64,000 nt of DNA from a virus (lineage: Duplodnaviria; Caudoviricetes). Location: IMG/VR virus record IMGVR_UViG_3300031784_000003; one strand, written 5' to 3'. Made by a program: the position numbers and the translations under genes. The notes beneath the pieces were generated by a model. It saw nothing but the letters and a program-made list of their open reading frames with translations, searched no databases and had not been told where the DNA came from. Below, piece after piece: positions 1-30,884 of this stretch (its first letter is position 1; each line of letters starts with the position of its first letter).

Positions 1-142
1 ATAATATGTCAGGATTTTGACTATCCATTACTACGTCAAAATTTTTTTTTAATAACCATAAAAATATGTTATCATTAGATGAACCAGGTATAGACACATC
101 ATATGCCTCCCAGTTTAAAAAATGTACTTTTATTTTTTTCAT
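1..142 (-). CDS. Partial GT10 (alpha-1,3-fucosyltransferase-like) glycosyltransferase; N-terminus only, runs off window edge
   Basis: Manual translation from ATG at 142: MKKIKVHFLNWEAYDVSIPGSSNDNIFLWLLKKNFDVVMDSQNPDIL, resembling GT10 N-termini; not in ORF track. Confidence 0.55.
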   Translation of the reverse strand, partial: MKKIKVHFLNWEAYDVSIPGSSNDNIFLWLLKKNFDVVMDSQNPDIL

Positions 143-147
143 TTTAA

Positions 148-813
148 TTATTTTTTTTCAGTTAAATATTTTTTTATTACCATATAATCTTTTTCTAAAT
201 CAGGTGACAAAGCGGCAGAATGGTAACTAATACCTTCTGAATTAGTATATGTTGTAGAATGCAACGCACTATTAGCTGACACAAAATTAGAAACTAAAAC
301 ATTTTCTTCGTATTTAGATATATTTAAATTAATTGCGACTCCCCACAACCACCCATCTGTTTGAGAATAATCCGAAATTCTACCTGTTAAATCAAACCAT
401 TTTTTAGGTATTATTGGGATTAATGAAAAATGACTATCCCAATTAGATTCTAAAAGGTTAACCTTTACGTAATTAAATTCATTTTCATATTTTTTTAAAT
501 AAATGTCCCAATCTTTAGATAATATTTTACAATCATCTGCTAAACACCACAATAAATTACCATTTGACATTTCAGATAATTTATTAAAATAGAGATGTAA
601 ATTTTTATAAAATAACCTTTCAAAAAATACGACTTTAATATTGTTTTTATTTAATATAAAAGTATTTAAAAAATTTATAGTTTCACTATCATCATTATCT
701 ACACCTAATATAATTTCGTAATTTGCTTCATCACTAGCATTATCAATAATTGAATTTAATGTTATTTCTAATTCATTTATTTTAGATCTCGTTGGAAATA
801 TAATACTTATCAT
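148..813 (-). CDS. GT2-like glycosyltransferase
   Basis: MISIIFPTR start, EIILGVDNDD, WCLADD (DXD-like). Confidence 0.65.
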   Translation of the reverse strand: MISIIFPTRSKINELEITLNSIIDNASDEANYEIILGVDNDDSETINFLNTFILNKNNIKVVFFERLFYKNLHLYFNKLSEMSNGNLLWCLADDCKILSKDWDIYLKKYENEFNYVKVNLLESNWDSHFSLIPIIPKKWFDLTGRISDYSQTDGWLWGVAINLNISKYEENVLVSNFVSANSALHSTTYTNSEGISYHSAALSPDLEKDYMVIKKYLTEKK

Positions 814-1670
814 AATTTAATTTTTTTTAAAATGTAGTTTGACACACCTTCCGTTGAAATATTTTTATTAAAATAGTTCAAATTAAGAATATCAAATTCA
901 TTTAATTTTTCTATTTTTAAAAGGTTGTGGATTAAATTATCATTTAATTCTGACCAATTATCTAAAAATATTGCGGGTGAGTTTTCGTAAAACCAATTAC
1001 CATAAATAGAATTTTTAGGATATGTAGTTATCACAATACAGTTATTTTCAAATGATTCAAAATATCTAAATGATTCTGGGACTACTGCACCTAAAGGTAC
1101 AATTGATATTTTGGAGTTTGACATTAATTCATAATATTCCTCTAATTTAAATCCTTTAGCAAACCCATCTGTAATATTTACAATAGATTTAAAATTATTT
1201 TTTACTTTATTTAATTGATTTATACACTCTACCCTATTAGGTGACCATTGGGCAGAATAAAAAATATCGTATTCTCTTTCCCTCAACAGTCGTTTTGGTT
1301 TTTCCATATTATCATAACACCAATCAGAGTTACCAAAATAACCCCCAAATCCACATGAAAAACCACATGGTACTGCAAATATTTTTTTATTGTCATGAAG
1401 ATTACTATTACTGTATGTTCTGAATATTAAAAAAAATTCCTCAGTAAATGGTGGAATAATTCCTTTTTCATCAGAAAGTAGAATTAAAATATTTTTTTTA
1501 TTTTTTTTAATACAATTATATAATTGTTGTTTTTCTACTTCATCATTTGATCTAGAAATTATAAAATGATAATTATCATCTAATTCATTTTTTAAATGAT
1601 CTAAAACCCTTAAAAAGTAAGGTGCGTCAGCAACTTCTGGTTTTACCATTGGGGCTATAGTTATTTCCAT
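810..1670 (-). CDS. Exostosin/GT47-like glycosyltransferase
   Basis: C-terminal YYELMSNSKISIVPLG..ESFRYFESFENNCI pattern typical of exostosin-like GT-B C-domains. Confidence 0.55.
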   Translation of the reverse strand: MEITIAPMVKPEVADAPYFLRVLDHLKNELDDNYHFIISRSNDEVEKQQLYNCIKKNKKNILILLSDEKGIIPPFTEEFFLIFRTYSNSNLHDNKKIFAVPCGFSCGFGGYFGNSDWCYDNMEKPKRLLREREYDIFYSAQWSPNRVECINQLNKVKNNFKSIVNITDGFAKGFKLEEYYELMSNSKISIVPLGAVVPESFRYFESFENNCIVITTYPKNSIYGNWFYENSPAIFLDNWSELNDNLIHNLLKIEKLNEFDILNLNYFNKNISTEGVSNYILKKIKL

Positions 1671-1671
1671 A

Positions 1672-2331
1672 TTATCCGTTTTGTATTAATCCTGGTTGTG
1701 TCCATGCAACTTTTATTCCCTCAACTTGAATAATTTCGTTTAATTTAAAGTCTATTGGTAAATTTATGATATTAAATCTTGGTAATATTTTCTTAGTAGT
1801 ATCTATATCTAAAATATATGCGTGAGTACATCTTGTTTTTTGATTTTCATTATAATAAACATATTTACCATCAGTTGTATTATGCACATTAAAATTATGT
1901 GATGTGCCTACCATCAACATACCAATAGATTCATTTTTATTCATTTCTATAAACTCATCTACATTTTTTCCTAAAAATTCGTTAAAATTATCAGGTATTA
2001 AAGCATCATCCTCCAGTATTAAAACAGTTTTATAATTATTTTTTATTTGATCAATATAACACCATTTATGTTTTAAGACTAAACTTAAACTACCCATACT
2101 TATTTTTTTTGAAAAGTTTTGGTATATTCCGTGAGGTTGTACTATGTCTACTGGTTCAAAAATTTCCCAATTTAATAGTTCTTTTTCATAATCTATGTCG
2201 TTTGGGTGGTACGTCTGGACTAATTCGTAATCGATACCTTCTTTTTTTAAACTATTTTCTATCACTTCCCTTCTTTTATGGAAATCTACATGATTCAGTA
2301 CATAAATTTTATCTAAATTTTTAATTTTCAT
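1672..2331 (-). CDS. GT25 family glycosyltransferase
   Basis: KIYVLN..KRR, LILEDDA, CTHAYIL motifs. Confidence 0.8.
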   Translation of the reverse strand: MKIKNLDKIYVLNHVDFHKRREVIENSLKKEGIDYELVQTYHPNDIDYEKELLNWEIFEPVDIVQPHGIYQNFSKKISMGSLSLVLKHKWCYIDQIKNNYKTVLILEDDALIPDNFNEFLGKNVDEFIEMNKNESIGMLMVGTSHNFNVHNTTDGKYVYYNENQKTRCTHAYILDIDTTKKILPRFNIINLPIDFKLNEIIQVEGIKVAWTQPGLIQNG

Positions 2332-3229
2332 TTTCTATCAATTCTTTAATTATTTTTATAGGATTATATACGTTAATATAATTATATATCGCCCCATCAA
2401 AGTCATAATTTTTATTTTTTTGATTAATTATTTTTTTTATAGTATCAATTTCATTACCGTCATAATTTAAATACTCATAAGAATTAGGGTAAAATTCAGA
2501 TATAGATTCATGCCCATTATAAATAGGTATAGTTCTACATATTATAGGATCAATAATTTTTTCTGTTATATTACCTCTTATACTAGAATTTTCTAAAGAA
2601 ATAGTATACTCATAATCTTTTAATCCGTTAAGTTTATTACTCAAAAACCCTTTATATCTAACATCATTTACCCCAATAGACCCCCAATCCTGACCATACA
2701 TATCAAAATCCAAATCACTTGATAATAACTTTAATACTAAATTTTCTCTTTCCTTATATCTTGTAATATTATGTATATTTTTTATAGAATGCGCCTCACT
2801 ATGATAATTAACAATTATAGATAATTTTTTAGTTTTAATAAAATTTTGTTCTAATAGTTTTTTAGTAGTCTCATGTTGGTGTATTATCTCACCTTTATAT
2901 TGACATTCATACAATCTATGTGTCCCTAAAAGTGGAGAAAAAACAATATTATCTTTTTTGTAAACATCTGGTTGGTAACTTATTACTTTATTACACCTAT
3001 CAAATAAAGAAGAATCAAAATTAGGTGACCAATTAGGTTCTAATATTATACCATATAAATTTTTTTTATCTATATTAGGTATGTTAGATTTATTTAAAAC
3101 CACTAAATGTGTATAGTCATTACCATATGTAATAATGTCATTATACTTACCATCAATGTTCCAAATATCATTAATAAAACTATAAATATTATAGTCACTA
3201 TTCCAATATGCAATAAATTTAATTTTCAT
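2321..3229 (-). CDS. GT10-like (fucosyltransferase-like) glycosyltransferase
   Basis: YEYTISLENS...ITEKIIDPIICRTIPIYNG motif. Confidence 0.7.
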   Translation of the reverse strand: MKIKFIAYWNSDYNIYSFINDIWNIDGKYNDIITYGNDYTHLVVLNKSNIPNIDKKNLYGIILEPNWSPNFDSSLFDRCNKVISYQPDVYKKDNIVFSPLLGTHRLYECQYKGEIIHQHETTKKLLEQNFIKTKKLSIIVNYHSEAHSIKNIHNITRYKERENLVLKLLSSDLDFDMYGQDWGSIGVNDVRYKGFLSNKLNGLKDYEYTISLENSSIRGNITEKIIDPIICRTIPIYNGHESISEFYPNSYEYLNYDGNEIDTIKKIINQKNKNYDFDGAIYNYINVYNPIKIIKELIENEN

Positions 3230-4019
3230 TATAGATGTTATTTTTTATTTTATTTTCCCAATAAACAAAATCTAATTTTTCAGTATTCCATTTACTATTT
3301 ATAATCCTTTCATACTCATCATTTAAAAATTCTTCTGTGATTTCACTCCATTCATTTACAAAACAAATAGGTAAATCTTCGTAAAACCTATTATTTTTAT
3401 TCCTTTTTTCAACTGGTATCGATCCAACATATAAAGTTTCCCAAGTCCTATGAGTATCGATACCATTACCTTCAGGACATAAAACAAATTTATGGTTATG
3501 GATATTATGTAAATAATTATCAAAATTATGACCATTGATACCATTTTCTAATGTAACCCATTTTTTATCTTTAAAAATGTTATAAGGTTCTATTCTTTGG
3601 GAGGGGTTAGTATTTATATTATGACAAACATATAATGTGTTTTTATAATATTTTTTTTGTTCAGATATTTTAATTATCTTATCTAACTTTTTTAGATTAG
3701 TAAACCACATACTATTTTCTAAACCTATAGGTATGGATTCTATTTTATCATGAACCACATCAATATTTTGACCATACCATTTAATTAAATTATCAGGTAT
3801 ATTAATTTTATTTATATCGCAATCATTACTACTACCACTATCAAATCTTTTTGGTGTTTCAGTAACCGATCCATCACTATTATGTGTAATTAAAATAAAA
3901 TTATTTTTAGGTGGGTTAACAAAAAAATCAAATACTTCATGTGTATGACAATAAAAAATTTTTTCATTATCACATAAAGAAATAAAATTTTCACCCTTTA
4001 TATATTTTTTTATTGCCAT
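3219..4019 (-). CDS. Exostosin/GT47-like glycosyltransferase
   Basis: ITHNSD, IPIGLEN, KFVLCPEGNGIDTHRTWETLYVGSIP. Confidence 0.65.
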   Translation of the reverse strand: MAIKKYIKGENFISLCDNEKIFYCHTHEVFDFFVNPPKNNFILITHNSDGSVTETPKRFDSGSSNDCDINKINIPDNLIKWYGQNIDVVHDKIESIPIGLENSMWFTNLKKLDKIIKISEQKKYYKNTLYVCHNINTNPSQRIEPYNIFKDKKWVTLENGINGHNFDNYLHNIHNHKFVLCPEGNGIDTHRTWETLYVGSIPVEKRNKNNRFYEDLPICFVNEWSEITEEFLNDEYERIINSKWNTEKLDFVYWENKIKNNIYNEN

Positions 4020-4801
4020 GAATTATACCATAAATGTATACAAATAGTTTTTTCTGTATTATAAGAATAAATATAATCTTTTAAATCGTCAAACCTACCC
4101 CTAATTTTGTGTCTCTCTGTGGCGGGTAATGGATAAAAGTATGGTGTTGGTAAAACAACTATATCTTCATCTTTTTGACTATTAATATAGTTAAAAAATA
4201 CTGTAGAGAAAAAGTATGGTCCAGTATTATTCATAATAGTTTCATGATTATTATTAGAAACGTCAATATTTTTAAAATTATCATACAACAAATTTAATAA
4301 ATTTTTTAATAAATTGTTATTTTTTGTTGCACCTATTAAACCATTAAAAACCATAGGTTCTCTAGAATGTCCTACACCCGTAAAAAAATCATTTTTTAAT
4401 AACGAATCAAAAGAAGTAACCATCTCAAAATCACTATCCAAATAGATACCACCTTCTCTGTATAGAATTTCATATCTAGCAACATCAGATTTACTACCAT
4501 AATTAGATAAATTGTCGTATAATTCCCTATTAATCATAGGGTAATCCCTTAAATCCTCTTCACCCCAAAGTTTGTATTCCCATTCAGGATGGTTTTCAAT
4601 TATTTTAGGTATTAATTGTTTATGTTCTTTAGGCATATCACCTATCCATATTTGATGAATTTTTTTTGGTATTTTATCAACTTTATTACCACTATTTTGA
4701 AATTTATTATAAAGTTCTTCTATAATATCCCAGTTCCCGTTCGGAACAACATTCCAATGACTTATTAAGTCACACCCCATTAGTTTTTTAAAAGATTCCA
4801 T
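4010..4801 (-). CDS. GT32 (Och1/TcdA-TcdB DXD-type) glycosyltransferase
   Basis: KIPKKIHQIW, SDVARYEILYREGGIYLDSD, HLW near C-terminus. Confidence 0.85.
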   Translation of the reverse strand: MESFKKLMGCDLISHWNVVPNGNWDIIEELYNKFQNSGNKVDKIPKKIHQIWIGDMPKEHKQLIPKIIENHPEWEYKLWGEEDLRDYPMINRELYDNLSNYGSKSDVARYEILYREGGIYLDSDFEMVTSFDSLLKNDFFTGVGHSREPMVFNGLIGATKNNNLLKNLLNLLYDNFKNIDVSNNNHETIMNNTGPYFFSTVFFNYINSQKDEDIVVLPTPYFYPLPATERHKIRGRFDDLKDYIYSYNTEKTICIHLWYNSWQ

Positions 4802-4804
4802 AAT

Positions 4805-5725
4805 TTAAATTATATTATAAGGTAAATTATATCTATAAAAATCATATAAAGATTTTAAATCTTTTATACCATCTTCTAAATTTAAATTTGTTTTAAACCC
4901 CAATTTATTGATTTTATTAAAAGATACTTGAAAATCTCTAGCGTCTAAATCGGGTAGTGTTGAATCGATTAATTCAAAATTTACGTATTTTTTTATTGTG
5001 TTAGCAATATCTATTTTAGAATAATTCAACTCACCGTCACCAACATTGTAAACTTCATTTTTACTTTTTTCAAAATTATTTAACACAAATATATAAGACT
5101 CTATAACATCATCAATATGGACAAAGGTTCTTTTTGAATGACCAGCAAAAACAACAATACTTCTATCTACTATTGATTTATACATAAAGTCATTAACCAT
5201 TAAATCATTTCTCATTTTAGGGCTTACACCAAAAACAGTTGCAAATCTCAATGACACACTATTTTCTTTATCTTGCACAATTTTTTCTGCCTCATACTTA
5301 GTTTTCCCATATAAACTAACGGGTATAATAACACTATCTTCATATGCCATTTCACCATTAAAATTACCATATGATGAGGTAGTGGATGCATTTATAATAA
5401 TTTGATCTTTAGATAAAAGTTTTACCAATGATTTAGTTGCCCCAACATTTATAGATTCCGCAGAGCTTGGATTTGCCGCACATGCAGGCATACCACTTAT
5501 GCCTGCCAAATGATACACCACATCAAAATTATTAACATCCTTTTCTTTAATATTTCTTATGTCCATTTTTATCACATTTAAATTTTTATTTTTTATTAAA
5601 TGCAATATACTATCATAACCATACATAAAATTATCTAAAATGGTTACTTTATGATTCATACTTAATAAACGTTCTGTCAATAAGATACCTTTATATCCAG
5701 CCCCTCCAGTAATTAATATATTCAT
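4805..5725 (-). CDS. NAD-dependent epimerase/dehydratase (extended SDR)
   Basis: ILITGGAGYKG Rossmann motif, YGKTK catalytic YxxxK, LRFATVFG. Confidence 0.9.
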   Translation of the reverse strand: MNILITGGAGYKGILLTERLLSMNHKVTILDNFMYGYDSILHLIKNKNLNVIKMDIRNIKEKDVNNFDVVYHLAGISGMPACAANPSSAESINVGATKSLVKLLSKDQIIINASTTSSYGNFNGEMAYEDSVIIPVSLYGKTKYEAEKIVQDKENSVSLRFATVFGVSPKMRNDLMVNDFMYKSIVDRSIVVFAGHSKRTFVHIDDVIESYIFVLNNFEKSKNEVYNVGDGELNYSKIDIANTIKKYVNFELIDSTLPDLDARDFQVSFNKINKLGFKTNLNLEDGIKDLKSLYDFYRYNLPYNII

Positions 5726-5740
5726 AATCTTTTATTTTTT

Positions 5741-6685
5741 TTATAATGGTTTCCATACAATTAGTGAGTGACCTTCAATAAAGTAACTACCACTATATGT
5801 TCTTTGTTTATTTAAAATCTTAATTTTACCCTCTTTTTCTAATGAAATTAGATAGGGTAAAAAACCATCTAAATAATTTCTTTTTCTAAAATATCTAATT
5901 GATAAATTATCTATTAATTTAGTTTCATCTAATAATTCATCTATAGGCTCCATATGTATACACACTTTTGGTTTTTTACTAATTAAATAATCAACAAAAC
6001 TTTTATAATTAGAACCAACTTGTTCTAACGCAGCAACTGTGTATATACCTGTTTTTTCTGTCAACTCTATATCATAATTAGGGTTGAAAAAGTCAAAGTT
6101 AAATGGGTTTATGTTTAAACCTAAAGTTTCATTAATTTCTTTTATTATTTTTTGTGACGATGTTGTCCAATCGGATCCATTTAATTTAAAATTATTATTA
6201 TAATTATTTAATCTTATTAAATGATATGCTGGCCCACAACCAAATTCAAAAACATCCTCAACATCTTTAAGATAATGTCTTAAAATTGCATCCACAAAAC
6301 AAATATGAATTTTGTAATCGAAATTTTCTGTTATAGGGTTTACTGGTTCACCTAACCATCTAACAATTCTATTTTTACCATGATATTTAGGTATTAGATT
6401 GTTTATATTTTTATCATTTTTAAAAAGGTTTAAATTTTCTCCCCAACCGTTTTCCCATTCTAAAATTCTGTGCTCACCAGATTTAGTTATGTCACTACTT
6501 AATACGTTAAAAACATTTAAAATATAGTCATCTCTCTCCTCTTTAGATAAAGTTTTATATTTTAAATTAAACTCTTTAATTCTTTCTCTAATTTCTTCAT
6601 CTATTTTAAACCCCAATATTTCTTCAATGTCTTTATAAGTAATTGTTTTAATTTCTGTTTCTGTTTTATACATAATATTTTTCAT
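5741..6685 (-). CDS. Class I SAM-dependent methyltransferase-like protein (putative sugar methyltransferase)
   Basis: VFEFGCG SAM-binding motif I; lies in sugar operon. Confidence 0.65.
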   Translation of the reverse strand: MKNIMYKTETEIKTITYKDIEEILGFKIDEEIRERIKEFNLKYKTLSKEERDDYILNVFNVLSSDITKSGEHRILEWENGWGENLNLFKNDKNINNLIPKYHGKNRIVRWLGEPVNPITENFDYKIHICFVDAILRHYLKDVEDVFEFGCGPAYHLIRLNNYNNNFKLNGSDWTTSSQKIIKEINETLGLNINPFNFDFFNPNYDIELTEKTGIYTVAALEQVGSNYKSFVDYLISKKPKVCIHMEPIDELLDETKLIDNLSIRYFRKRNYLDGFLPYLISLEKEGKIKILNKQRTYSGSYFIEGHSLIVWKPL

Positions 6686-7682
6686 ATAATTCTTTTTGCC
6701 ATTTAATTGTGTTATTTAATCCATAAGTTAGTGATTTAAATTTAATATCACCAAACTCATTTGTGTAGGTTTTTGTTGAAATATTTACCATTTTAGGATT
6801 ACCTTCCATTCCCTTAATTTCAGAAGGTATTCTAACCTCTTTACCTAATATATTACCAATAGACTTTGCTAAATCGTATATTGTTGTTATACTGTCACCA
6901 CCTACATTATAAACTGTAGATTTTCCGAACAATAATATGTTCCAAAACATTTCAACAACATCTGTTATGTAACAATATGTTCTTATTGCTTCACCTCTAT
7001 CCATTAATGTAATATCATTGTTTTTTAAACCCTTTTCAATTAAAGAATTTAAAACCCTATGGTCACCTACTTTAGTTCCTGGTCCATATGCTAAACTAAG
7101 TCTTATGATTTTAACATCAACATTTTGTTTTACATATGAATGACATATTGATTCCCCACATCTTTTCCCCTCAATATAACAAGATCTGGGGTGATCAGTG
7201 TTAGTAGTCCCTATTTGTGATTCATCAATACTTTCCACATCTAAACCACTATATAGTTCGCTGGTACTCACAAATAAAAATTTACCACCATCATTTAATT
7301 TATCAAATAAATTAATAGTTGAGTTAGTATTAAGTGATATGGTTTTTATTTTATTTTCTAAAAATTTTCCTGGTTGACCATATCCTGCTGCGTGTATAAT
7401 ACAGTCATATTTAGGTAATTTTTTAAAACTTTCTGAGTTAGTAATATCAGATTGTATAATTTGGCAATCTTTAAAAATTTCATTAAAGGGGTATTCTAAA
7501 TCGTTTTTAACCCAACAAGTTATTTTTAGATTATATTTTTCTTTAATTTCTTTCAAACAAGATACCATATAAACACCAACTAACCCTGATGCACCAGTTA
7601 CCAATATAGATTTATCTTTTAACTGACTAAAATCTATATTATCTACAATTTCTACACATTCTTTTTTTATGATTCTATACAT
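6666..7682 (-). CDS. NDP-sugar epimerase/dehydratase, UDP-glucuronate decarboxylase (UXS)-like
   Basis: ILVTGASGLVG, STSELY, PRSCYIEGKR (compare UXS PRSCYDEGKR). Confidence 0.8.
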   Translation of the reverse strand: MYRIIKKECVEIVDNIDFSQLKDKSILVTGASGLVGVYMVSCLKEIKEKYNLKITCWVKNDLEYPFNEIFKDCQIIQSDITNSESFKKLPKYDCIIHAAGYGQPGKFLENKIKTISLNTNSTINLFDKLNDGGKFLFVSTSELYSGLDVESIDESQIGTTNTDHPRSCYIEGKRCGESICHSYVKQNVDVKIIRLSLAYGPGTKVGDHRVLNSLIEKGLKNNDITLMDRGEAIRTYCYITDVVEMFWNILLFGKSTVYNVGGDSITTIYDLAKSIGNILGKEVRIPSEIKGMEGNPKMVNISTKTYTNEFGDIKFKSLTYGLNNTIKWQKELYEKYYV

Positions 7683-9273: not shown

Positions 9274-10076
9274 TCATTAATTTTTTCATATATTATGTCA
9301 TCAGCCACCAAATACTTTTTAGATAAATTAAAATTATTTTCGATACTTTTAATTTTACTAAGATACACATCTTTATTCAATTTAGGAATTAAATTTTGTA
9401 ATTCTTCGATTGTCTCAAAAAATAAAAATCCATCAGTGTCAAAAAAGTCCCCTATAGACGGACATCCATAATAGACAGGTATTGTTCCAGTAACTAAACA
9501 ATCTAATAATTTTTCTGTAAATAAATAATCCATTACCTGATTTTCCATTACAATACAAAACATATAATCCTTTAATACATCTATTTTATTTTCTATATGT
9601 ATATATCCTGAACCATAAACGTCAATACCTGACACATTTTGTATAACTTCATGTCTATATTTATGTGCTTTAGTTATTTTTTTGTTTGAGGCAATAGTGC
9701 AAATAATTTTATTTTCATCCTTATCATATATTTTTCTATCCTCTTCAGATATCCAACAACCTCCAATAGGTAACATCTCAAATTTGTCAGATAATTCTAA
9801 CAATTTTTTATCATAAGTAAATATTTTCTCAAAAAGATTATGATTTTTTATTGCAAAATCATATGTATGATTAGTAACTTCTGGCGGCTCTATAATCCAA
9901 CCATACAACCTTTTATCTTTAATATGATTAACAATTTCTAAATTTGTTGTCACAATATCATTTGTTTGTTCATAATTACCTCTAACCCAAACAAATTTTT
10001 GAGGTTCATTATACCAACTAGATGATGGTGCATGTGAAAATTGATTGTCGTATATATATAAATTATCTTTTTTCAT
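9258..10076 (-). CDS. GT10-like (fucosyltransferase-like) glycosyltransferase
   Basis: YMFCIVMEN...FTEKLLDCLVTGTIPVYYG. Confidence 0.75.
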   Translation of the reverse strand: MKKDNLYIYDNQFSHAPSSSWYNEPQKFVWVRGNYEQTNDIVTTNLEIVNHIKDKRLYGWIIEPPEVTNHTYDFAIKNHNLFEKIFTYDKKLLELSDKFEMLPIGGCWISEEDRKIYDKDENKIICTIASNKKITKAHKYRHEVIQNVSGIDVYGSGYIHIENKIDVLKDYMFCIVMENQVMDYLFTEKLLDCLVTGTIPVYYGCPSIGDFFDTDGFLFFETIEELQNLIPKLNKDVYLSKIKSIENNFNLSKKYLVADDIIYEKINEWKKK

Positions 10077-10088
10077 TTTTTTCTATAA

Positions 10089-10700
10089 TCACCCTTTAAT
10101 ATAAAACGCATCACCCCAAGTTACGCCCTCCCAAGTTGTTTCAACTCTACTGAACCCATAAGAATTTAAAAATTGATCTAATTCTTCTACTTTAGCACAC
10201 CCTTTATATAATTCAGCTCTATTCACTTCAGTCATTACATAATCAACAGAATTTAAAAATTCTGAACCACCCTTAAATACTTCTAATTCATAACCCTGAA
10301 CGTCAATATTAATAAAATTATAGTTAATATTTTCGTCTATAAAATTGTCTAATTTTGTAATCTTAACTTTTTCTTTACCATTAAATTGAATGGTTGGATG
10401 TTGGACTAAATGGTAATCAGGTTCTAAAACAGAACTAGATTGCCCTTCATTAATTGTTTCAGTAAACATTTCTACCTCACCTTCTATATTACCCAACGCG
10501 GTATTAACTAATATTGCCTTATCCCCAACATTTTCTTTTAGTCTATCAAATGTTTTTTTTAAAGGTTCAAAAAACATAACGTTTTTAATACCTAATCTTT
10601 CGTAGGTTTGAAATTCTTGACCAATATGTGCCCCAATATGTAAAACACCTTTAATTTTTAAATTGTATTTTTCTTTTAAACTATCTAAATTTAATAACAT
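10089..10700 (-). CDS. FkbM family methyltransferase
   Basis: GVLHIGAHIGQE, FFEP, INIDVQGYELEVFKG. Confidence 0.88.
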   Translation of the reverse strand: MLLNLDSLKEKYNLKIKGVLHIGAHIGQEFQTYERLGIKNVMFFEPLKKTFDRLKENVGDKAILVNTALGNIEGEVEMFTETINEGQSSSVLEPDYHLVQHPTIQFNGKEKVKITKLDNFIDENINYNFINIDVQGYELEVFKGGSEFLNSVDYVMTEVNRAELYKGCAKVEELDQFLNSYGFSRVETTWEGVTWGDAFYIKG

Positions 10701-10732
10701 AAGAATTATTTTTTTTTATTATATAATATAAA

Positions 10733-10761
10733 ATTATAGTAAAATTTTTTTAAAAAGTAAA
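10733..10761 (-). promoter_or_regulatory. Possible sigma70-like promoter upstream of FkbM gene
   Basis: Minus strand TTTACT-N17-TATAAT in the only sizeable gap of the glyco cluster; region is very AT-rich. Confidence 0.35.
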
Positions 10762-10766
10762 TGAAT

Positions 10767-11582
10767 TTATTTTAAAAATCCATTATCATAAACAACATTT
10801 ATTTTTTTCCATTTTGGTTCATAGACATCTGTATAATCTTTATGACCTTTTGGTCCAAACCAAACAGAAGGTACACATACCTTTTTGTTTTTATTTTTAT
10901 TTAGGTATGATCCCCACCAAGAAAAAGATGAATTAGACATAATATTATGATTACATAAACTAATTGCCCATAAATCTTCATAATCATTTAAATCGGTAAC
11001 AATAGTAGATTTATCATAATTTAAATTTTTTTCTGCCCATTCTTTATCATTTGTAAAAATAAATAAGTGAGAATATTTACCAATAGATTTTAGGGACTTA
11101 TCTATATAACTTTTTTCTATTACTGGTAAAATATCAGACACAGTTAAATAATCCCCTCTTCTAATATGAATAGATACTGAATTTTTTTCGAATATTAGTG
11201 GGTATAAAGTCATTAATTTTTGTTTAAACTCTTCAGTTGGTAAAAATAAGTTTTTTATATTCTCACTATAATTTTTAAAATTTTTACTACTTTGGTAATA
11301 ACCATAAAACATTATTGAGGTGTCATAACCATATTTTAAATCGTTATAATTCCAAGATATTTCGTCAACTCTTTTTTGTGGATTAATATTATCTTTAAAG
11401 TCAATATTTCTAAAGATATTATCTACATAGGTAATAGTTTGATTACCTTCCATAGGAAGAAATGAGAAAGGTTTAAAATAGACAGGTGTGTTATGAATAT
11501 ACCCTTCTGTTTTGGCTTTGGCAATTTGAAACATTTGATTACCCAAACCACCCATTAAATGTGTTGTTATAAATTTTTCCAT
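10767..11582 (-). CDS. GT11 alpha-1,2-fucosyltransferase-like
   Basis: LMGGLGNQMFQ, SIHIRRGDY, NSSFSWWGSYL; start re-assigned to ATG at 11582 (MEKFITT), directly after upstream stop. Confidence 0.88.
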   Translation of the reverse strand: MEKFITTHLMGGLGNQMFQIAKAKTEGYIHNTPVYFKPFSFLPMEGNQTITYVDNIFRNIDFKDNINPQKRVDEISWNYNDLKYGYDTSIMFYGYYQSSKNFKNYSENIKNLFLPTEEFKQKLMTLYPLIFEKNSVSIHIRRGDYLTVSDILPVIEKSYIDKSLKSIGKYSHLFIFTNDKEWAEKNLNYDKSTIVTDLNDYEDLWAISLCNHNIMSNSSFSWWGSYLNKNKNKKVCVPSVWFGPKGHKDYTDVYEPKWKKINVVYDNGFLK

Positions 11583-11583
11583 A

Positions 11584-12198
11584 TTAAAATAACCACTTAT
11601 AGTTAACATTTTTATTTTGTATATCACTAAAACTTTCTCTTTGTAACGCAATACTAGGATTAAACCCATAACAATTATAAGATTTTTGTATATCGGCATA
11701 ATATACGTCTATCGGTTTTCCTCTTTTACTTATTAAATCCAATATTAAGTCATAAATAGTATTGTTTATAACCACACAATGTATACCATATGTTTCATTT
11801 AATTTTATTATTTTTTCATTTAAAAAATTAATTTGTTTACCCATATGTTTATTGTGGTTTCCTCCAAAATATATCATATCCCAATCGGAAGGTAATAATG
11901 ACATATATTCATCTAAATTTTTTATTTCTTCAGTAAATTCTATATCATCTTCTAATATTAATATATTTTTATAACCTTTTTCCTTAGCCTCATTAATAAT
12001 GTTAATGTGGGTAGTTAAGATACCTAATTCTCCATTATTTATTGTAGTATTATTAATTAATGTGTTACCATCTACGGCAGAATAACGAGTAACACTATCA
12101 GACAATCCCCACTTACCTAATTCTTCTAGTGTTTCATTCCACCTATCTTCTCTGCGATCAAGATTTATACAATAAATTTTATCAAAATAATTTTTCAT
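11584..12198 (-). CDS. GT25 family glycosyltransferase
   Basis: YCINLDRREDRW, LILEDDI, GGNH. Confidence 0.85.
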   Translation of the reverse strand: MKNYFDKIYCINLDRREDRWNETLEELGKWGLSDSVTRYSAVDGNTLINNTTINNGELGILTTHINIINEAKEKGYKNILILEDDIEFTEEIKNLDEYMSLLPSDWDMIYFGGNHNKHMGKQINFLNEKIIKLNETYGIHCVVINNTIYDLILDLISKRGKPIDVYYADIQKSYNCYGFNPSIALQRESFSDIQNKNVNYKWLF

Positions 12199-12201
12199 AA
12201 T

Positions 12202-13062
12202 TTAAATATAAGTTTTTAAAATTTCAGATTTATATTCTATAATTTGATTTAACACTCCATCACCTAATTTTTTTATATCCTCATATAACTCTTCTAATAT
12301 TAAGGAATCATTGTTAGATTGTATTTCGTGATATAAATGTAATAATTCGTTTTTAGGGTTGTCTACAGAATGAATCTTTTCTAAGGTTTCAACTTTATTC
12401 CAAAAAAATATATCTTCTGGTGACCAACCATAAAATAATTCAGGATCGTAACCACCAACATTAAAGAATAATTCTTTATTCACAAATATTGATCCACCAG
12501 GTGCACCATAATCACCTTCCCTAACTTCCTCCAAATTAATATCGTTAATATTTATTTCTTTATTTAATAAATTTTGTGATTGTTGTTCATTTAAATAAAG
12601 TACTCTACGATTAAAAAATGTTTGTAAACATTCTGATTTTTTAGATTCTTTATTCTCCATTAAATTTAAGAAAAAATTATCATAAACTAAACAGTCTAAA
12701 TCATGAAACAAAAAATATTTAGAATTTTTATTTAATAATGCACCAATATTATGACATAAACATTTATTGAATTTGTTTTCTACACTATTGATCCAATAAT
12801 ACCCTACCCCATAACTCTTACAAATTTCATAATATTCTCTATTTGTTGAATGTTCAACAATTGTAACATTAATTTTTAGATTTGTTTTTTCTATTGCAGA
12901 TTTTAAATGTGATAAAGATGCGTCAACAAAATTAATCCTACCTCTAACTGGTATTATTACACTAATATCAAACTTTTTAAATGGTTTTTTCTTTTTAATT
13001 TCTTTGTAAAAAACATCAAACCTATTAATATCTATTATATTTTTAATATCTGAAAAAATCAT
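12202..13062 (-). CDS. GT2/GT7-like (galactosyltransferase-like) glycosyltransferase
   Basis: SVIIPVRGR, FHDLD, GGYDPELFYGWSPED, HLYH. Confidence 0.8.
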   Translation of the reverse strand: MIFSDIKNIIDINRFDVFYKEIKKKKPFKKFDISVIIPVRGRINFVDASLSHLKSAIEKTNLKINVTIVEHSTNREYYEICKSYGVGYYWINSVENKFNKCLCHNIGALLNKNSKYFLFHDLDCLVYDNFFLNLMENKESKKSECLQTFFNRRVLYLNEQQSQNLLNKEININDINLEEVREGDYGAPGGSIFVNKELFFNVGGYDPELFYGWSPEDIFFWNKVETLEKIHSVDNPKNELLHLYHEIQSNNDSLILEELYEDIKKLGDGVLNQIIEYKSEILKTYI

Positions 13063-13694
13063 ATTTCAATAACTCTCCTATTATCTTCAACTTTATTTTG
13101 AATATCACTATAACTAACTCTTTGTAATGCAATACTTGGATAAAAAGAATAGACATTTAATTCTTTTTGTAATTCACTATAGTAAATGTCAACAGGTTTC
13201 TTACAACCTTTAATTAAGGTTAAACACTTATCATAACAAGTGTCTCTAAAAACAATACAATGAGTAGTAAACGTCTTACTACATTTAATTATATTATCAT
13301 TTATTTTATTTATTTTTTCTCCTTCATGTAGATTGTGGTTTCCACCAAAATAAAGAATGTCCCAATCACTTGGGACTATCGACATATATTCATCTAATTT
13401 TTTTATCTCTTCAGTAAATTCTATATCGTCTTCTATTATTAATATATTTTTATATTTTTTAGTTTTGGCTAATTGTAATAAATTTATATGGGTTTTTAGT
13501 AAACCCAATTCACCATTATTAACCCTAAATATATTATTATCATAACTTAATTTACTACCATCAACACCCTTAAATCTATTAACTCCGTCAAATAAATTCC
13601 ATTTTTTAAGTTCTGATACAGTTTCATTCCACCTATCTTTCCTTCTATCTAAATTAATACAAAAAACCCTATCAAAATATTTTTTTAAACTCAT
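13059..13694 (-). CDS. GT25 family glycosyltransferase (paralog of 11584-12198)
   Basis: FCINLDRRKDRW, LIIEDDI, GGNH. Confidence 0.85.
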   Translation of the reverse strand: MSLKKYFDRVFCINLDRRKDRWNETVSELKKWNLFDGVNRFKGVDGSKLSYDNNIFRVNNGELGLLKTHINLLQLAKTKKYKNILIIEDDIEFTEEIKKLDEYMSIVPSDWDILYFGGNHNLHEGEKINKINDNIIKCSKTFTTHCIVFRDTCYDKCLTLIKGCKKPVDIYYSELQKELNVYSFYPSIALQRVSYSDIQNKVEDNRRVIEI

Positions 13695-15094
13695 ATCATA
13701 ATTTTATTATCTATTACGTCAAAATTTTTAGTTATTATTCTTTGATATAACTCCATATGGTTTTTATTTGCTTCAGTGGATACTGTCCCATCATTTTCAT
13801 GATGAAAATAGACAAATAATGGTTTTGGTATTCTTTTACCAACATAACCCTCTTTCATCATTCTAATCCACATATCATAGTCTTCCCAACCAATCATCTC
13901 TTCATCATAACCGTTAACTTTTTCAAACGATTCTCTATGGAACATAGAACAATTAACTATAAATGGGCCTTGTAATAATCTTTCTTTACTCCATTCAGGT
14001 CTTTTTTCTACACCTTGCGTTTGCCCAACATGATGTGTATCACAATACACTGGACTGATTTCTTTATTTTTTGTTAATATATTTACACAAGATCTAATAT
14101 AACCATCTAAAATCATATCATCAGAGTCTAATGGTAATATATATTCACCTTTAGAATGTCTAAACGCCTCATTTCTTGCAGATGAAGGTCCACCATTTTC
14201 TTTATAAACAACCTTAATTTTTTCTACATTTTCTAATTGTTTAAGTTTCGTCTTAACAAACTCATCTGTAGATCCATCATCCACTAAAATTATCTCAAAA
14301 TTGGTGTAATCTTGGTTAAATACAGAATTTAATGTTTGATTAATCCTATTACCATAATTGTAAATCGGCATCAAAATAGATACTAGTGGTTCTTTATCTT
14401 TTACTTTTTTAATGTTATATGTATACGGAATAATTTTAGGTAAACTTTCTTTATATTTCCCCACAAATTGAATTCTATTATCTTCCCATTGTTGGTTTGT
14501 TTGTCCGATAGATAAATGAGTTACCGCTATATCTGAAATAACACCAATATTAACACCGTTTAAAAAATTATTAAAACAAAAATCTATCTCATAAAAATGA
14601 AATCCTTTGAAATTTTCGTCAAAATCTTTAACAATATTATTTTTATTAACCGCAAAAAACAAACCGTCAACTATAATAGTATCTTCTATTTTATTACCAA
14701 ATGATTCATTATATTTTGATAACCATTTTCTACCTTCATGTTGGTGGTAGACTTGTCCAATAACTTCAGTCATACCATAATCCCACCATCTACCTGAAGA
14801 CGGCATATATTTAGTTCCTGCCTTACCAATAATACCATAATTAGGATTTCTTTTGAAGTGATTCAATATCTTATTACCCCAATTTTTAGTTTCCAAAATT
14901 ATGTCATCATGACAAAAAACCACAATATCATTTGTGGTTTCTTTTAAGGCTTTATTATAAATTTCTGTTAGAGAATATTCACCATTGTTTATATATTGAA
15001 TAACCTCCATATCTTTGTAGATACCAGAGGTTACCATTATATGTTCTTTATGTTTTGGATTATCTTCTCTAGTTGAGAATACTACACTAATCAT
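13691..15094 (-). CDS. Two-domain glycosyltransferase (GT2-like N-domain + GT2 C-domain)
   Basis: N: IYNKAL..VFCHDD, VDGLFFA, FHFYEID; C: VSILMPIYN, LVDDGSTD, ARN, PLDSDD, WEDYD. Confidence 0.85.
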   Translation of the reverse strand: MISVVFSTREDNPKHKEHIMVTSGIYKDMEVIQYINNGEYSLTEIYNKALKETTNDIVVFCHDDIILETKNWGNKILNHFKRNPNYGIIGKAGTKYMPSSGRWWDYGMTEVIGQVYHQHEGRKWLSKYNESFGNKIEDTIIVDGLFFAVNKNNIVKDFDENFKGFHFYEIDFCFNNFLNGVNIGVISDIAVTHLSIGQTNQQWEDNRIQFVGKYKESLPKIIPYTYNIKKVKDKEPLVSILMPIYNYGNRINQTLNSVFNQDYTNFEIILVDDGSTDEFVKTKLKQLENVEKIKVVYKENGGPSSARNEAFRHSKGEYILPLDSDDMILDGYIRSCVNILTKNKEISPVYCDTHHVGQTQGVEKRPEWSKERLLQGPFIVNCSMFHRESFEKVNGYDEEMIGWEDYDMWIRMMKEGYVGKRIPKPLFVYFHHENDGTVSTEANKNHMELYQRIITKNFDVIDNKIMI

Positions 15095-15230
15095 TTTTTA
15101 AACTATTATAATATTTTCTTATTTCATTACCTAATGTTTGATCATTAGGAAATTTTAAAATCATTTCTAAAATATGAAAAGAATCAATCTTTTTTGATAA
15201 TTCATATTTTTTAGGATCAATGTTTACCAC
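15087..15230 (-). CDS. Small hypothetical protein (47 aa, GTG start)
   Basis: Manual translation MVNIDPKKYELSKKIDSFHILEMILKFPNDQTLGNEIRKYYNSLKND; fills the gap and overlaps both neighbours. Confidence 0.5.
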   Translation of the reverse strand: MVNIDPKKYELSKKIDSFHILEMILKFPNDQTLGNEIRKYYNSLKND

Positions 15231-15792
15231 TTGATCCGAAACCTGTGTTACCTCTTTCTGTTTCATTTAATTTATCTACTTTGATTAAATCTGATATACC
15301 TTGACCTACTACATTCATTATCACACCTTGTGCAATTCTTTCTCCTGGCTCTATAGTATATTCTTCGTTACTTAAATTAATTACTATAATACCTACATCA
15401 CCTCTATACCCTTCGTCTACAGTACCAGGTGTGTTTAATACTGAAATACCGTGCTTCAATGCCATACCACTTCTAGGTCTAACTTGTAATTCAGTATTAG
15501 ACGATAATTCAAACTTTAAACCAGTAGGGATTAATTTTCTTTCTAATGGTTTTAATGTTATAGGTTTATCTATAAATGCTCTTAAATCAAAACCACTATC
15601 CCCTACTTTAGCATATTCAGGATCAGGATTATTTGAACTATTAGTGAATTTAGTTTTTATCTTAAAATAATCAATATTAACATCTAATAAATTCTTACTT
15701 TCGACAGATTCTATATGTGACATTAATGATTGTAATTCTTCTAATTGTCTAAGTTCTTCTTCAAAAGAAGAGTCTAAATCGTTTACTTCCAT
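15217..15792 (-). CDS. dut: Trimeric dUTPase with acidic N-terminal extension
   Basis: SGFDL, RPRSG, GTVDEGYRG, RIAQ, RGNTGFGSSG motifs. Confidence 0.95.
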   Translation of the reverse strand: MEVNDLDSSFEEELRQLEELQSLMSHIESVESKNLLDVNIDYFKIKTKFTNSSNNPDPEYAKVGDSGFDLRAFIDKPITLKPLERKLIPTGLKFELSSNTELQVRPRSGMALKHGISVLNTPGTVDEGYRGDVGIIVINLSNEEYTIEPGERIAQGVIMNVVGQGISDLIKVDKLNETERGNTGFGSSGKH

Positions 15793-16355
15793 TATTTATT
15801 TTTTTTACATTCTATTATTGATAATTCATTTGCCTGTTTTAAAAGTGTAGATAATGTTGAACCATACCATTTAGATTGTTTATCATCTTCCGATTTATCA
15901 AAATTAATAATTGACTGATATTCTTCTTCAGTTAAACTAACACCATAAGTTAATGCATAATATGCGGATCTTTCACCTACTCTCATAGAAATAAGATCCT
16001 CATTAAAGTCATACATTTTACCTGCATTTTTTCTATGCCATTCAGATTCACAAAATTTAAATAAGAATGTCTTACCTATTTGGTGTAAAAAACATACCTT
16101 AATTATTGATTTTTTGTCCACTCTTAAATTTTCAGGTAAACTTTCATTTAATATTACCGCATATTTTGTAACTTTCAAAATATGATCAATCAAACCACCT
16201 GGAAAGGCATTATACATACTTTCCATATTTGATGCTGGTGCAGTAAACAAATCTTCTCCTAAAAATTCTAATAAAGAATGAGTAAAAGTTTCATTGGACT
16301 GGCAAGTCTTCTCAAACTTTTCTCTATTCTTAATAATTTTTTCTTTTAGTTCCAT
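15792..16355 (-). CDS. HD-domain (YhaM-like) protein
   Basis: APAS, FPGGLIDHILKV, CFLHQIGK (HD replaced by HQ). Confidence 0.65.
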   Translation of the reverse strand: MELKEKIIKNREKFEKTCQSNETFTHSLLEFLGEDLFTAPASNMESMYNAFPGGLIDHILKVTKYAVILNESLPENLRVDKKSIIKVCFLHQIGKTFLFKFCESEWHRKNAGKMYDFNEDLISMRVGERSAYYALTYGVSLTEEEYQSIINFDKSEDDKQSKWYGSTLSTLLKQANELSIIECKKNK

Positions 16356-16382
16356 ATTCTTTTTTTTATAAGAATAATGATT

Positions 16383-17639
16383 TTATTTTACTAAATCAAA
16401 TACTAAATCTTTTTTTTCTTGAACTAATTTACTATAAAGATTTTTTCTTTCTCCACAAACAGTTTTCATATCATATTTACCATTTACGGTATTATATAAA
16501 TTTTCACCTAGTTTAGTAATTAATTCAGGGTTTTCTACTAGTCTTTTTAAATGGCTATACCATAATTTATGATTTTTTACAGTAGGGATTAAAAACCCAT
16601 TACCGTTTTCGTTTATCGTACCACCCTTCTCAAAAGAATCAACAACGTCTATCTGATACGAACCAAAGTCTTGTGCGACTATAGCCTTTTTATGGAAACC
16701 TGCTTCAATCACTTTAAGCTGAGATTTAACTTTATTAAACGTATTTTCTTTAAGTGGTGCTAATGAGATATCAAATAAATTATAATTTGATGCATAAGAT
16801 GTAATTGGTTTAGTCCATACTCTTCTGTAAGGTTCATTTGCAACGTTTTCATATTCTTTATTTTCAAAAGATAACAAAAATTCTTTATATTCTTCACTAA
16901 CAATTTTATAATCATCAGTAAATATTCTTTCATATTCGTACCATACGGATTCTTTTGGTTTAATAGGGCGTTGTTTTTGTTCACCAGTTTTTTGATCAAT
17001 CATTGTGATTGTACCTCTTAAATCAAAACCACATAATACAAATTGTACTTTATCAATTAATCCGTCATTTTTGAATTTACTAACCATCCCCTTTAAAATT
17101 TCTAAATCTTTTAAGTGAGAAGATCCACCTAACCATCCAATTCTAATTCTATCACTTTTTTCAGAATTATTTTGGTATTGTTTTTCAGATGGATTAATTG
17201 CGTTTGGAATCACAAAAACATTTTTATTAAATTTACTTATTTCATCCGCAAATATTTTTGTTGTGGTAGTCACATTTCTAGAAACTTTAACATTATTTAA
17301 AATTTTCTTATCCAACTCATGAGATTTAATTATTTGCCAAGCAGGATGATCAGGACCTGGAGACCAATGATCATCTATATCCATAATAGTCGCAATACCT
17401 AATTTATCACATCTATCTAACAATTCACCTAAATATTCATAATCACCTAAAGTTCTATGGTAATGTATTAAATCATATTTTTTTAAATATTCATCGTTAT
17501 GTAACTCAGGTTCATAATCAATATCGACATGAAAATCGTTAGGGAAATATTCTTCTAATTTGATGTGGGGTATTGTCGATCTATAATAAGAAACCCCTGT
17601 TCTGTCACTCGGAACAACTAATACTTTAATTTTACTCAT
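16383..17639 (-). CDS. GT-B fold (GT4-like) glycosyltransferase
   Basis: MDIDDHW, VIPNAI, RIGWLGGSSH, DISLAPL..N.FNKVKSQLKVIEAG. Confidence 0.8.
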   Translation of the reverse strand: MSKIKVLVVPSDRTGVSYYRSTIPHIKLEEYFPNDFHVDIDYEPELHNDEYLKKYDLIHYHRTLGDYEYLGELLDRCDKLGIATIMDIDDHWSPGPDHPAWQIIKSHELDKKILNNVKVSRNVTTTTKIFADEISKFNKNVFVIPNAINPSEKQYQNNSEKSDRIRIGWLGGSSHLKDLEILKGMVSKFKNDGLIDKVQFVLCGFDLRGTITMIDQKTGEQKQRPIKPKESVWYEYERIFTDDYKIVSEEYKEFLLSFENKEYENVANEPYRRVWTKPITSYASNYNLFDISLAPLKENTFNKVKSQLKVIEAGFHKKAIVAQDFGSYQIDVVDSFEKGGTINENGNGFLIPTVKNHKLWYSHLKRLVENPELITKLGENLYNTVNGKYDMKTVCGERKNLYSKLVQEKKDLVFDLVK

Positions 17640-17709: not shown

Positions 17710-17741
17710 TTTGTTTTTTCAAAATGTTATTTATATATTTG
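17710..17741 (+). promoter_or_regulatory. Bacteroidota housekeeping-type promoter
   Basis: TTTG (17710-13), 20 nt spacer, TATATTTG (17734-41): matches -33 TTTG / -7 TANNTTTG. Confidence 0.7.
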
Positions 17742-17761
17742 TTAATATAAAATCAAGCACT

Positions 17762-30459: not shown

Positions 30460-30470
30460 TATTTATTAAT

Positions 30471-30839: not shown

Positions 30840-30884
30840 CTATAAAAAATTAAATATATAATATTTATTAAAAAATATAAATAG

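Follow-up and report, generated by a model that had tools for sequence, protein, structure and literature searches.

To our knowledge, clusters rich in glycosyltransferase (GT) genes have been reported in large aquatic phages since 2005, and their target has never been shown. The cyanophage P-SSM2 carries 24 'LPS genes' (LPS, lipopolysaccharide) in two clusters (2005; PMC1079782), and S-SCSM2R has 22 genes that include 13 GTs, with GT10, GT11, GT25 and GT2 among the families, a count described as perhaps the largest in any marine phage (2025; PMC12801897). GT genes are likewise known from hypervariable regions of pelagimyophages and from the moraphages, a set of 25 mostly freshwater jumbo phage genomes of 200–307 kb without an RNA polymerase, with Flavobacteriia/Bacteroidota as predicted hosts and a core genome that includes four putative GT orthogroups (PMC12619734). 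Here we describe a GT cluster at positions 1–17639 of a 64,000-nucleotide stretch (the window) of the IMG/VR virus record IMGVR_UViG_3300031784_000003. The locus is a phage-owned glycan assembly line in which four GTs conserved in the lineage bracket a replaceable island of 2–16 kb. New are its size, the replaceable island bounded by anchors, the theme of GDP-fucose and methylation in genes borne by a phage, and a transketolase cassette common to huge phages; it is the largest and best-delimited such example that we found.

The cluster consists of 21 co-directional open reading frames (ORFs) and one ORF cut by the window edge, all in a single run on the minus strand. GT and domain assignments were made with Pfam at its curated cut-offs, and weaker scores are marked as sub-threshold. 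The genes are as follows (aa, amino acids; SDR, short-chain dehydrogenase/reductase).

1–143, minus: 5′ end of a gene for a GT10-like fucosyltransferase, cut by the window edge (PF00852 on record for the 303-aa product of the related contig L015)
148–813, minus: GT2-family GT-A, 221 aa (PF00535, 28.6 bits; cut-off 23.3)
810–1670, minus: RXYLT1/GT47-like GT, 286 aa (RXYLT1_C, 16 bits, sub-threshold; ESM Atlas structure)
1672–2331, minus: GT25, 219 aa (PF01755, 54.7 bits)
2321–3229, minus: GT10-like fucosyltransferase, 302 aa (PF00852, 28.8 bits; cut-off 23.9)
3219–4019, minus: RXYLT1_C/exostosin (GT47)-like GT, 266 aa (PF24785, 30.5 bits, cut-off 27; PF03016, 21.2 bits, below cut-off)
4010–4801, minus: GT32 with DXD sugar-binding region, 263 aa (PF04488, 55.3 bits; PF05704, 38.3 bits)
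4805–5725, minus: cassette gene 5, NAD-dependent SDR epimerase/reductase, 306 aa (PF01370, 109 bits)
5741–6685, minus: cassette gene 4, probable class I S-adenosylmethionine (SAM)-dependent methyltransferase, 314 aa (weak PDB match and Atlas neighbors)
6666–7682, minus: cassette gene 3, SDR, nucleoside diphosphate (NDP)-sugar 4,6-dehydratase/UXS-like, 338 aa (PF01370, 136 bits)
7667–8545, minus: cassette gene 2, C-terminal half of transketolase (pyrimidine-binding and C domains), 292 aa (PF02779, 53.8 bits; PF02780, 29.6 bits)
8542–9273, minus: cassette gene 1, N-terminal, thiamine diphosphate-binding half of transketolase, 243 aa (PF00456, 126.9 bits; NF004559, 206.6 bits)
9258–10076, minus: GT10-like α-1,3-fucosyltransferase, 272 aa (PF00852, 37.7 bits)
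10089–10700, minus: FkbM-family methyltransferase, 203 aa (PF05050, 70.1 bits; TIGR01444, 80.3 bits, cut-off 37.7)
10767–11609 (ORF to 11699), minus: GT11 α-1,2-fucosyltransferase-like, 280 aa as called (PF01531, 86.5 bits)
11584–12198, minus: GT25, 204 aa (PF01755, 34.8 bits)
12202–13062, minus: GT2 (Glyco_tranf_2_2)/GT7-like, 286 aa (PF10111, 38.3 bits; GT7N and GT7C sub-threshold)
13059–13694, minus: GT25, 211 aa (PF01755, 30.7 bits)
13691–15094, minus: two-domain GT-A (Glyco_tranf_2_5 and GT2/GT7C, by Pfam), 467 aa, conserved anchor
15217–15792, minus: canonical dUTPase with N-terminal extension (NF001862, 173 bits; cut-off 103)
15792–16355, minus: HD-domain-like protein, 187 aa (PF01966, 17.8 bits, below cut-off)
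16383–17639, minus: GT-B (GT4-like) GT, 418 aa, conserved (phrog_7162, E-value 1.7e-39; no Pfam match)

Thirteen complete genes and the edge-cut gene encode GTs. The other products are two SDRs, a split transketolase, two methyltransferases, and the dUTPase and HD protein, which sit within the block yet are non-glycan genes. About half of the junctions overlap by 4–20 nt, suggesting an arrangement as in an operon. No tRNA genes were found in the window.

A strain with 97% identity (L015) extends past the window start, and there the order is GT10 (303 aa), Gmd, Fcl, PhoH, small ORFs, a 372-aa protein, a 258-aa GT2, and a weakly sigma-factor-like protein. The N-terminus encoded by 1–143 is that of the product of L015 10612–11523 except for the start codon (ATG here, TTG in L015). 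Gmd scored 402 bits with TIGR01472 and Fcl 239 bits with NF047922. The Atlas neighbors of the 372-aa protein were viral Glycos_transf_1 clusters; its structure prediction was poor (predicted local distance difference test, pLDDT, 52), and it is called GT-B-like from the Atlas features alone. The whole block of about 24 kb contains 16 GT genes, 14 in the window and two beyond its edge, and no sugar nucleotidyltransferase was seen in it (window plus L015 extension).

Comparison with related contigs showed that the block has constant ends and a changing middle. The two-domain GT2 anchor was present in the contigs of all 14 IMG/VR relatives (56–81% identity), and homologues of the 418-aa GT-B were present in 11 of the 14 (50–84%). 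The dUTPase and the far-side block (PhoH, 372-aa protein, 258-aa GT2 and sigma-like protein) were also conserved, and the HD protein was conserved in closer relatives only. Identity among relatives was 36–91% for the two-domain GT2 and the far-side block, which we refer to as the anchors. The stretch between them measured 2.0–12 kb in the relatives against about 16.4 kb here, the largest seen. In a relative whose anchor is 94% identical (L106), the 10-kb island encodes GT25, GT11, FkbM, GT10, GT2, a FUT8-like protein, an SDR, a DegT aminotransferase, Gmd, and Fcl; the window differs from it in a duplicated GT25 with a GT2 inserted and, beyond the GT10 at 9258, in the transketolase cassette and six more GTs. 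A further relative, with 84% anchor identity (L107), had a different island content again. Gmd, Fcl, GT11, and GT10 recur across the relatives and the middle of the island is exchangeable, so that an island of 2–16 kb, differing at 94 and 84% anchor identity, behaves as a hypervariable cluster. The four conserved GTs that bracket it are the 418-aa GT-B and the 467-aa two-domain GT-A and, outside the window, the 372-aa GT-B-like protein and the 258-aa GT2.

The cluster DNA is that of a phage, not of a contaminating host or a misassembly. The rest of the window encodes a tail sheath, a tail tube, a fibre-like protein, a family-B DNA polymerase (PolB), an SNF2 helicase, and a DUF285/BspA repeat protein. 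One contig (L019) was 100% identical to the window over 15.5 kb, a second (L021) was 99.99% identical, and three others (L015, L016 and L017) were 97.3–97.7% identical over 10 kb. Proteins identical to those of the window were found on a 272,978-bp contig, and homologues of the anchor GT were located on contigs of 269–308 kb; the source is an uncultured freshwater jumbo phage of about 273 kb. Lake, freshwater, and aquaculture samples account for 17 runs, from about 12 studies, that each contained at least half of the sampled words. No RNA data sets containing the island or the anchor gene were listed, which has no bearing on expression. Low G+C content (GC) and bacterial-type gene families would be expected from host-chromosome contamination or a chimeric assembly, but we give such an artefact practically no credence, since gene order and junctions were the same in independent ENA, JGI, and Logan assemblies at 97–100% identity, both flanks consist of phage genes conserved in 14 IMG/VR viral contigs, and the DNA recurs in about 12 studies. 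Megablast against GenBank phages gave no DNA match, and neither did an exact comparison with the DNA in IMG/VR. The best GenBank phage matches of PolB (33972–36797, plus strand) were Salinibacter phages with just 25% identity, which underlines how far from cultured phages the lineage lies.

There was no evidence for export machinery. No transmembrane segment was found in any cluster protein in a Kyte-Doolittle scan; its only two hydrophobic windows were an SDR Rossmann strand and the N-terminus of the over-extended GT11 ORF. Neither the window nor the L015 extension encodes a Wzx flippase, Wzy/WaaL, a priming transferase, or STT3, and no Bac_transf, Glycos_transf_4, Wzy_C (above cut-off), Polysacc_synt, or STT3 match was found in five related IMG/VR contigs totaling 540 kb. 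A self-contained O-antigen or capsule pathway is thus excluded in the parts read.

A preliminary description of this DNA, made from the sequence, had proposed a phage-borne, contiguous, co-directional cluster of about 14 GTs with sugar-modifying enzymes, continuing past the window edge and devoid of Wzx/Wzy and other membrane proteins. The results agree with it on each of these points: Pfam, ESM Atlas, and Foldseek gave 13 complete and one cut GT genes, the SDRs, split transketolase, and FkbM methyltransferase supply the sugar modification, L015 continues the run, export genes were lacking in the window, the extension, and 540 kb of relatives, and the independent assemblies, the dozen or so studies, and the phage genes on both flanks contradict contamination or misassembly. 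It had also called the scale unusual for a bacteriophage. The locus does stand at the top end, and P-SSM2 and S-SCSM2R are precedents for its size. Of the genes that it had suggested looking for upstream, those for GDP-fucose (Gmd and Fcl) lie just outside the window, and nucleotidyltransferase genes were not seen there.

Several of the single GTs were characterized further. The 467-aa two-domain GT had K4 chondroitin polymerase (2z86) as its best PDB match, in two stretches (E-value 2e-29); H62, D64, D323, D325, and D326 were invariant in 14 homologues, and both DxD-type motifs were kept. The AF2 model of the 418-aa GT-B (pLDDT 83) had the GT4 enzymes GlgM, MshA, BshA, PglA, and SdgB as its best PDB matches in Foldseek; giant-virus GT1 proteins occurred among its fold neighbors, and DNA α-GTs appeared in BFVD only at ranks 44–45. 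The GT10 at 9258–10076 matched H. pylori FucT (2nzw) and human FUT9 in the PDB. PDB sequence searches with the GT11, the GT25, and the 418-aa GT gave no matches. The product of 810–1670 is a paralogue of that of 3219–4019 (24% identity, E-value 5e-6). Its ESM Atlas model aligned with a eukaryotic RXYLT1 cluster with a template-modeling score of 0.79 by query and 0.57 by match, and its nearest Atlas clusters were 85–100% viral (Uroviricota). The GT25 copies at 11584–12198 and 13059–13694 are paralogues with 70% DNA identity. For the GT11, the long ORF reaches 11699, and the gene call in the identical contig L019 starts at 11609; the latter is probably the true start, and the hydrophobic N-terminus of the long ORF is, on the same gene call, probably left untranslated.

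The sugar-modifying genes are concentrated in a five-gene cassette around the split transketolase. For the SDR at 4805–5725, the best NCBIfam matches were GalE and heptose epimerase, all far below the cut-offs; for that at 6666–7682, the best was dTDP-glucose 4,6-dehydratase (75.9 bits, below cut-off). The product of 5741–6685 had no Pfam or NCBIfam match. It gave a weak PDB match to the StiE O-methyltransferase, and its Atlas feature neighbors were Methyltransf_25/11/31 clusters, so that it looks like a class I SAM methyltransferase rather than a GT. From transketolase chemistry alone, we infer that the cassette may yield a C2-extended or branched, methylated sugar; a literature search for transketolase in polysaccharide or branched-sugar pathways found nothing usable.

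The best homologues of the N-terminal half of the transketolase were all metagenomic. The cassette occurred in the same order on two long contigs, at 71% DNA identity on a 286,803-bp contig (L025; ENA ERZ28593940) and at 68% on a 660,742-bp contig (L024; JGI 3300071517, Ga0620987_00066). The former also carries a Glyco_tranf_2_5 anchor, GT25, GT11, FkbM, GT10, a FUT8-like gene, and PolB. GenBank phage genomes contained no credible counterpart, the matches of 35–39% being unannotated fragments or bacterial records. The cassette thus appears to be a mobile unit among huge phages. On the 660-kb contig it is adjoined by GT2, GT6, FkbM, and other methyltransferase genes and by genes for a T4 gp32-like single-stranded DNA-binding protein and a ClpB-like AAA protein, and this contig, judged from 20 kb of it, may belong to a megaphage with a glycan island of its own. 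On the 286,803-bp contig, a LAGLIDADG homing-endonuclease gene (L025 15627–16439, plus strand), located between SDR genes within the glycan island of this other jumbo phage, might drive the exchange of cassettes.

On the sugars, the acceptor, and the sequence of steps, we infer the following. Because all enzymes are soluble, the chain would be built in the cytoplasm of the infected cell. The conserved GTs would attach a core glycan to an acceptor encoded by the phage, probably fibre proteins or proteins of the virion surface, and the island would supply a strain-specific, fucose-rich, methylated outer decoration, that is, a 'serotype' of the virion, similar to glycosylation in chloroviruses, mimivirus, and mycobacteriophages. 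Fucose would be provided by the phage Gmd and Fcl and transferred by the three GT10 enzymes and the GT11, hexoses would be added by the three GT25 enzymes, the GT32, the GT2, and the two RXYLT1-like GTs, methyl groups by the FkbM and class I methyltransferases, and a modified sugar would come from the split transketolase and the two SDRs. A GT set that is conserved across a lineage with just 50–60% identity argues that the acceptor is conserved as well and is therefore probably encoded by the phage; little beyond the four conserved GTs is left in the smallest islands, which also points to a conserved acceptor. A precedent for virion glycosylation is given by mycobacteriophages, with glycans on the capsid and on tail-tube C-termini (Freeman 2023, as cited in PMC12619734). 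Phage-encoded acceptors, probably virion proteins, are therefore the reading that we tentatively prefer, though at somewhat less than an even chance. The complete picture, in which an invariant core made by four GTs on capsid or fibre proteins carries a swappable, strain-specific, fucose-rich, O-methylated layer with a transketolase-derived rare sugar, is put forward with a little more reserve.

Candidate acceptors near the block are the fibre-like proteins, whose Thr/Ser-rich tracts we regard as a lead only. Several large fibre-like ORFs without Pfam matches (28795–33904 and 44413–48174, plus strand) contain Thr/Ser-rich repeat tracts, and in 30885–32333 a 30-residue stretch has 17 Ser/Thr in a short repeated Thr/Ala/Ile-rich motif. 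The tracts are possible O-glycosylation sites, and such tracts are also ordinary in fibres. Collagen-like repeats, a possible GT25 acceptor, were not found in the window proteins. In the same fibre-like gene group, 26404–28542 (plus strand) encodes a 712-aa protein made almost entirely of DUF285/BspA-type repeats (Pfam score 1082, 10 stretches), likely an adhesin or receptor-binding protein. Between the 418-aa GT and a 701-aa protein, a small ORF (17711–17986, plus strand) has a lipoprotein-type signal ending in LTSC and was gene-called at 74–91 aa in identical or near-identical contigs and in L106; its product may be a lipoprotein of the phage that serves, for instance, in superinfection exclusion.

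A number of points weigh against a virion acceptor. GT10, GT11, and GT25 are classic families of lipooligosaccharide (LOS) and Lewis-antigen synthesis on lipid-linked acceptors, bacterial O-antigen and LOS GTs are mostly soluble or peripheral and use a host lipid carrier, a flippase or MsbA, and a ligase, and Thr-rich tracts are common in glycan-free fibres. Among proteins of solved structure, a polysaccharide polymerase is the best match to the conserved two-domain GT, and the major capsid protein lies outside the window. The parts read amount to about 74 kb of the approximately 273-kb genome, the related contigs are 23–46% complete, and a priming transferase or transporter could be encoded elsewhere. 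The nearest published analogues, in cyanophages and pelagimyophages, were read as host-surface modification (PMC1079782, PMC7029224, PMC12801897).

The target may instead be the host envelope. The phage GTs would then extend a host lipid-linked acceptor, either lipid A-core/LOS at the inner membrane face or an undecaprenyl-linked O-antigen, capsule, or O-glycan precursor, and host MsbA or flippase and ligase would export the product; the surface would be altered during a long infection, excluding competitors or stopping re-adsorption of progeny. GT10, GT11, GT25, GT2, and GT32 together with Gmd and Fcl form a bacterial LOS/Lewis/O-antigen set, and the mosaic of conserved ends and variable middle, with an island GC of 24–28% against 28–34% in the virion genes, recalls O-antigen loci. 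The nearest bacterial Gmd and Fcl were found in lake metagenome-assembled genomes (MAGs) of Saprospiraceae (Bacteroidota), at 73–74 and 56–61% identity, respectively, and host-surface change is the published interpretation of the P-SSM2, S-SCSM2R, and pelagimyophage clusters. However, four core GTs shared by very divergent phages fit variable host surfaces poorly, unless the acceptor is a conserved core structure, and neither phage priming, flippase, or ligase genes nor an integrase or lysogeny gene were seen in the parts read. The preliminary description had taken soluble GTs to favor virion proteins or DNA over O-antigen conversion. The cluster does lack export genes, but the argument fails: since bacterial LOS and O-antigen GTs are also soluble, missing Wzx/Wzy does not separate a virion or DNA target from a host-surface target. 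We regard envelope remodeling as a possible but somewhat less likely explanation, and place the virion acceptor ahead of it, with the host envelope close behind.

Two other products can be envisaged. A K4CP-like two-domain GT might polymerize an intracellular, matrix, or lysis-released glycan, free or cell-associated, which the island enzymes decorate. The 467-aa anchor indeed finds its best homologues of solved structure in two bifunctional glycosaminoglycan polymerases, K4 chondroitin polymerase and heparosan synthase B, and both of its catalytic DxD motifs are invariant. This explanation is nevertheless improbable, as many two-domain GT2 proteins merely add two consecutive sugars, no ABC/Kps exporter or membrane protein is present, and the identity to K4CP is low and limited to the generic GT-A core. 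The GTs, especially the 418-aa GT-B, could instead glycosylate modified bases against restriction. DNA as a target, which the preliminary description had kept beside virion proteins, came out weakly. The GT genes adjoin nucleotide-pool genes (dUTPase and HD protein), phage GTs are known to build diverse DNA glycans (Pyle 2024, as cited in PMC12619734), and DNA α-GTs are among the distant fold matches of the 418-aa GT-B. The fold of this protein, however, matches GT4 enzymes first. A close relative has a true ThyA as its thymidylate synthase (TIGR03284 equivalog, 303 bits; cut-off 108), the dUTPase is canonical, and the relatives' partial genomes (540 kb) yielded no T4 β-GT above cut-off (PF09198 gave a sub-threshold 14 bits), no Tet/JBP, and no C5-methylase. 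Fucosyl, GT25, and GT32 families and a total of 16 GTs also far exceed known DNA glycans. We give DNA hypermodification very little weight, and DNA is an unlikely acceptor.

Bacteroidota are the predicted host. After Saprospiraceae, the nearest bacterial Gmd proteins were those of Acidobacteriota (70–73%) and Cryomorphaceae (69%), and the bacterial MAG contigs with the nearest Gmd share gmd and fcl alone with the phage. The Bacteroidota promoter consensus TTTG-N18-21-TANNTTTG gave six matches against 4.06 expected, a number that 23 of 100 shuffles reached; it was not enriched and so cannot serve as evidence on the host. Nor were generic scans for sigma-70 promoters and terminators informative, the DNA of the window being AT-rich. 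By size, habitat, and the four conserved GTs, the phage is a probable member of the moraphages. DnaK was not found in the partial relatives, and just 8 of the 25 moraphages in PMC12619734 have it. In one relative (L022; IMG/VR 3300043466_003163), the thymidylate synthase gene at 1012–2238 (minus strand) encodes 408 aa, with an insertion of about 44 aa between the ThyA halves.

With four core GTs around a replaceable island, the locus poses the question of virion coat versus host surface sharply, in a phage that is abundant and recurrent in lakes and aquaculture water, and its transketolase cassette moves between unrelated huge phages, including that of the 660-kb contig. Should the virion carry the glycan, jumbo phages would rank with the giant viruses in autonomous, strain-variable glycosylation of the particle, a bacteriophage counterpart with O-antigen-like 'serotype' switching, and this would bear on adsorption, grazing, and the detection or sorting of virus particles. 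Should the host carry it instead, the surface of Bacteroidota would be rewritten by a lytic jumbo phage during infection.

In chloroviruses and Megavirinae, virion glycosylation is autonomous: soluble GTs and nucleotide-sugar enzymes, encoded in clade-specific gene clusters, work without host ER or export, and chlorovirus glycans are fucose-rich and methylated. The present locus shares virus-encoded soluble GTs and nucleotide-sugar enzymes with these viruses and with glycosylated mycobacteriophages. It differs in that the capsid or fibril glycan is chemically proven there and predicted from genes here, and in that the host here is a bacterium. The Lewis/LOS synthesis of H. pylori uses the GT10 enzymes FutA/B, the GT11 FutC, and GT25 galactosyltransferases. 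The GT10/GT11/GT25 triad and dependence on GDP-fucose are common to both, and the phage GT10 matches H. pylori FucT structures, but the bacterial pathway acts on an acceptor linked to lipid and depends on a priming enzyme, a flippase, and WaaL, whereas the phage encodes none of these in the parts read. The seroconverting GtrABC cassettes of temperate phages, with the flippase GtrA, the bactoprenol glucosyltransferase GtrB, and a polytopic type-specific Gtr protein, are likewise phage-encoded glycosylation systems, yet consist of membrane proteins, of which there are none here (no transmembrane segments and no such Pfam matches). The T4 α/β-glucosyltransferase system needs a hydroxymethylase, whereas here there is just a true ThyA in a relative. 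A literature search for fucose in jumbo phages found nothing relevant.

The moraphages resemble this phage in the size of the anchor-GT contigs (269–308 kb), freshwater habitat, PolB, no RNA polymerase in the parts read, Bacteroidota-like homologues, and four conserved GTs; PMC12619734 describes neither a variable island nor a fucose pathway or transketolase cassette. The pelagimyophages (PMC7029224) are also uncultured aquatic myophages with a GT-rich hypervariable region by tail-fibre genes, for which a change of the host O-chain was proposed. Their GTs are GT8-dominated and scattered in groups of two or three, whereas ours are arranged in one operon-like block that has fixed anchors and combines fucose with methyl chemistry. 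Similar in gene content are the cyanophage LPS clusters of P-SSM2, S-SCSM2R, and S-SCSM1 (PMC1079782, PMC12801897), in which a large aquatic myovirus has clustered GT10/GT11/GT25/GT2 genes and NDP-sugar epimerases with no export genes reported. Homologues of the GT11, about 31% identical, were found in 103 GenBank phage records, mostly cyanophages. In contrast to the cyanophages, this phage belongs to another lineage, its PolB having 25% identity to any GenBank phage and its predicted host being a member of the Bacteroidota, and its locus has more GTs per block (14 in the window and 16 in 24 kb), four core GTs that bracket the island, and a split-transketolase cassette.

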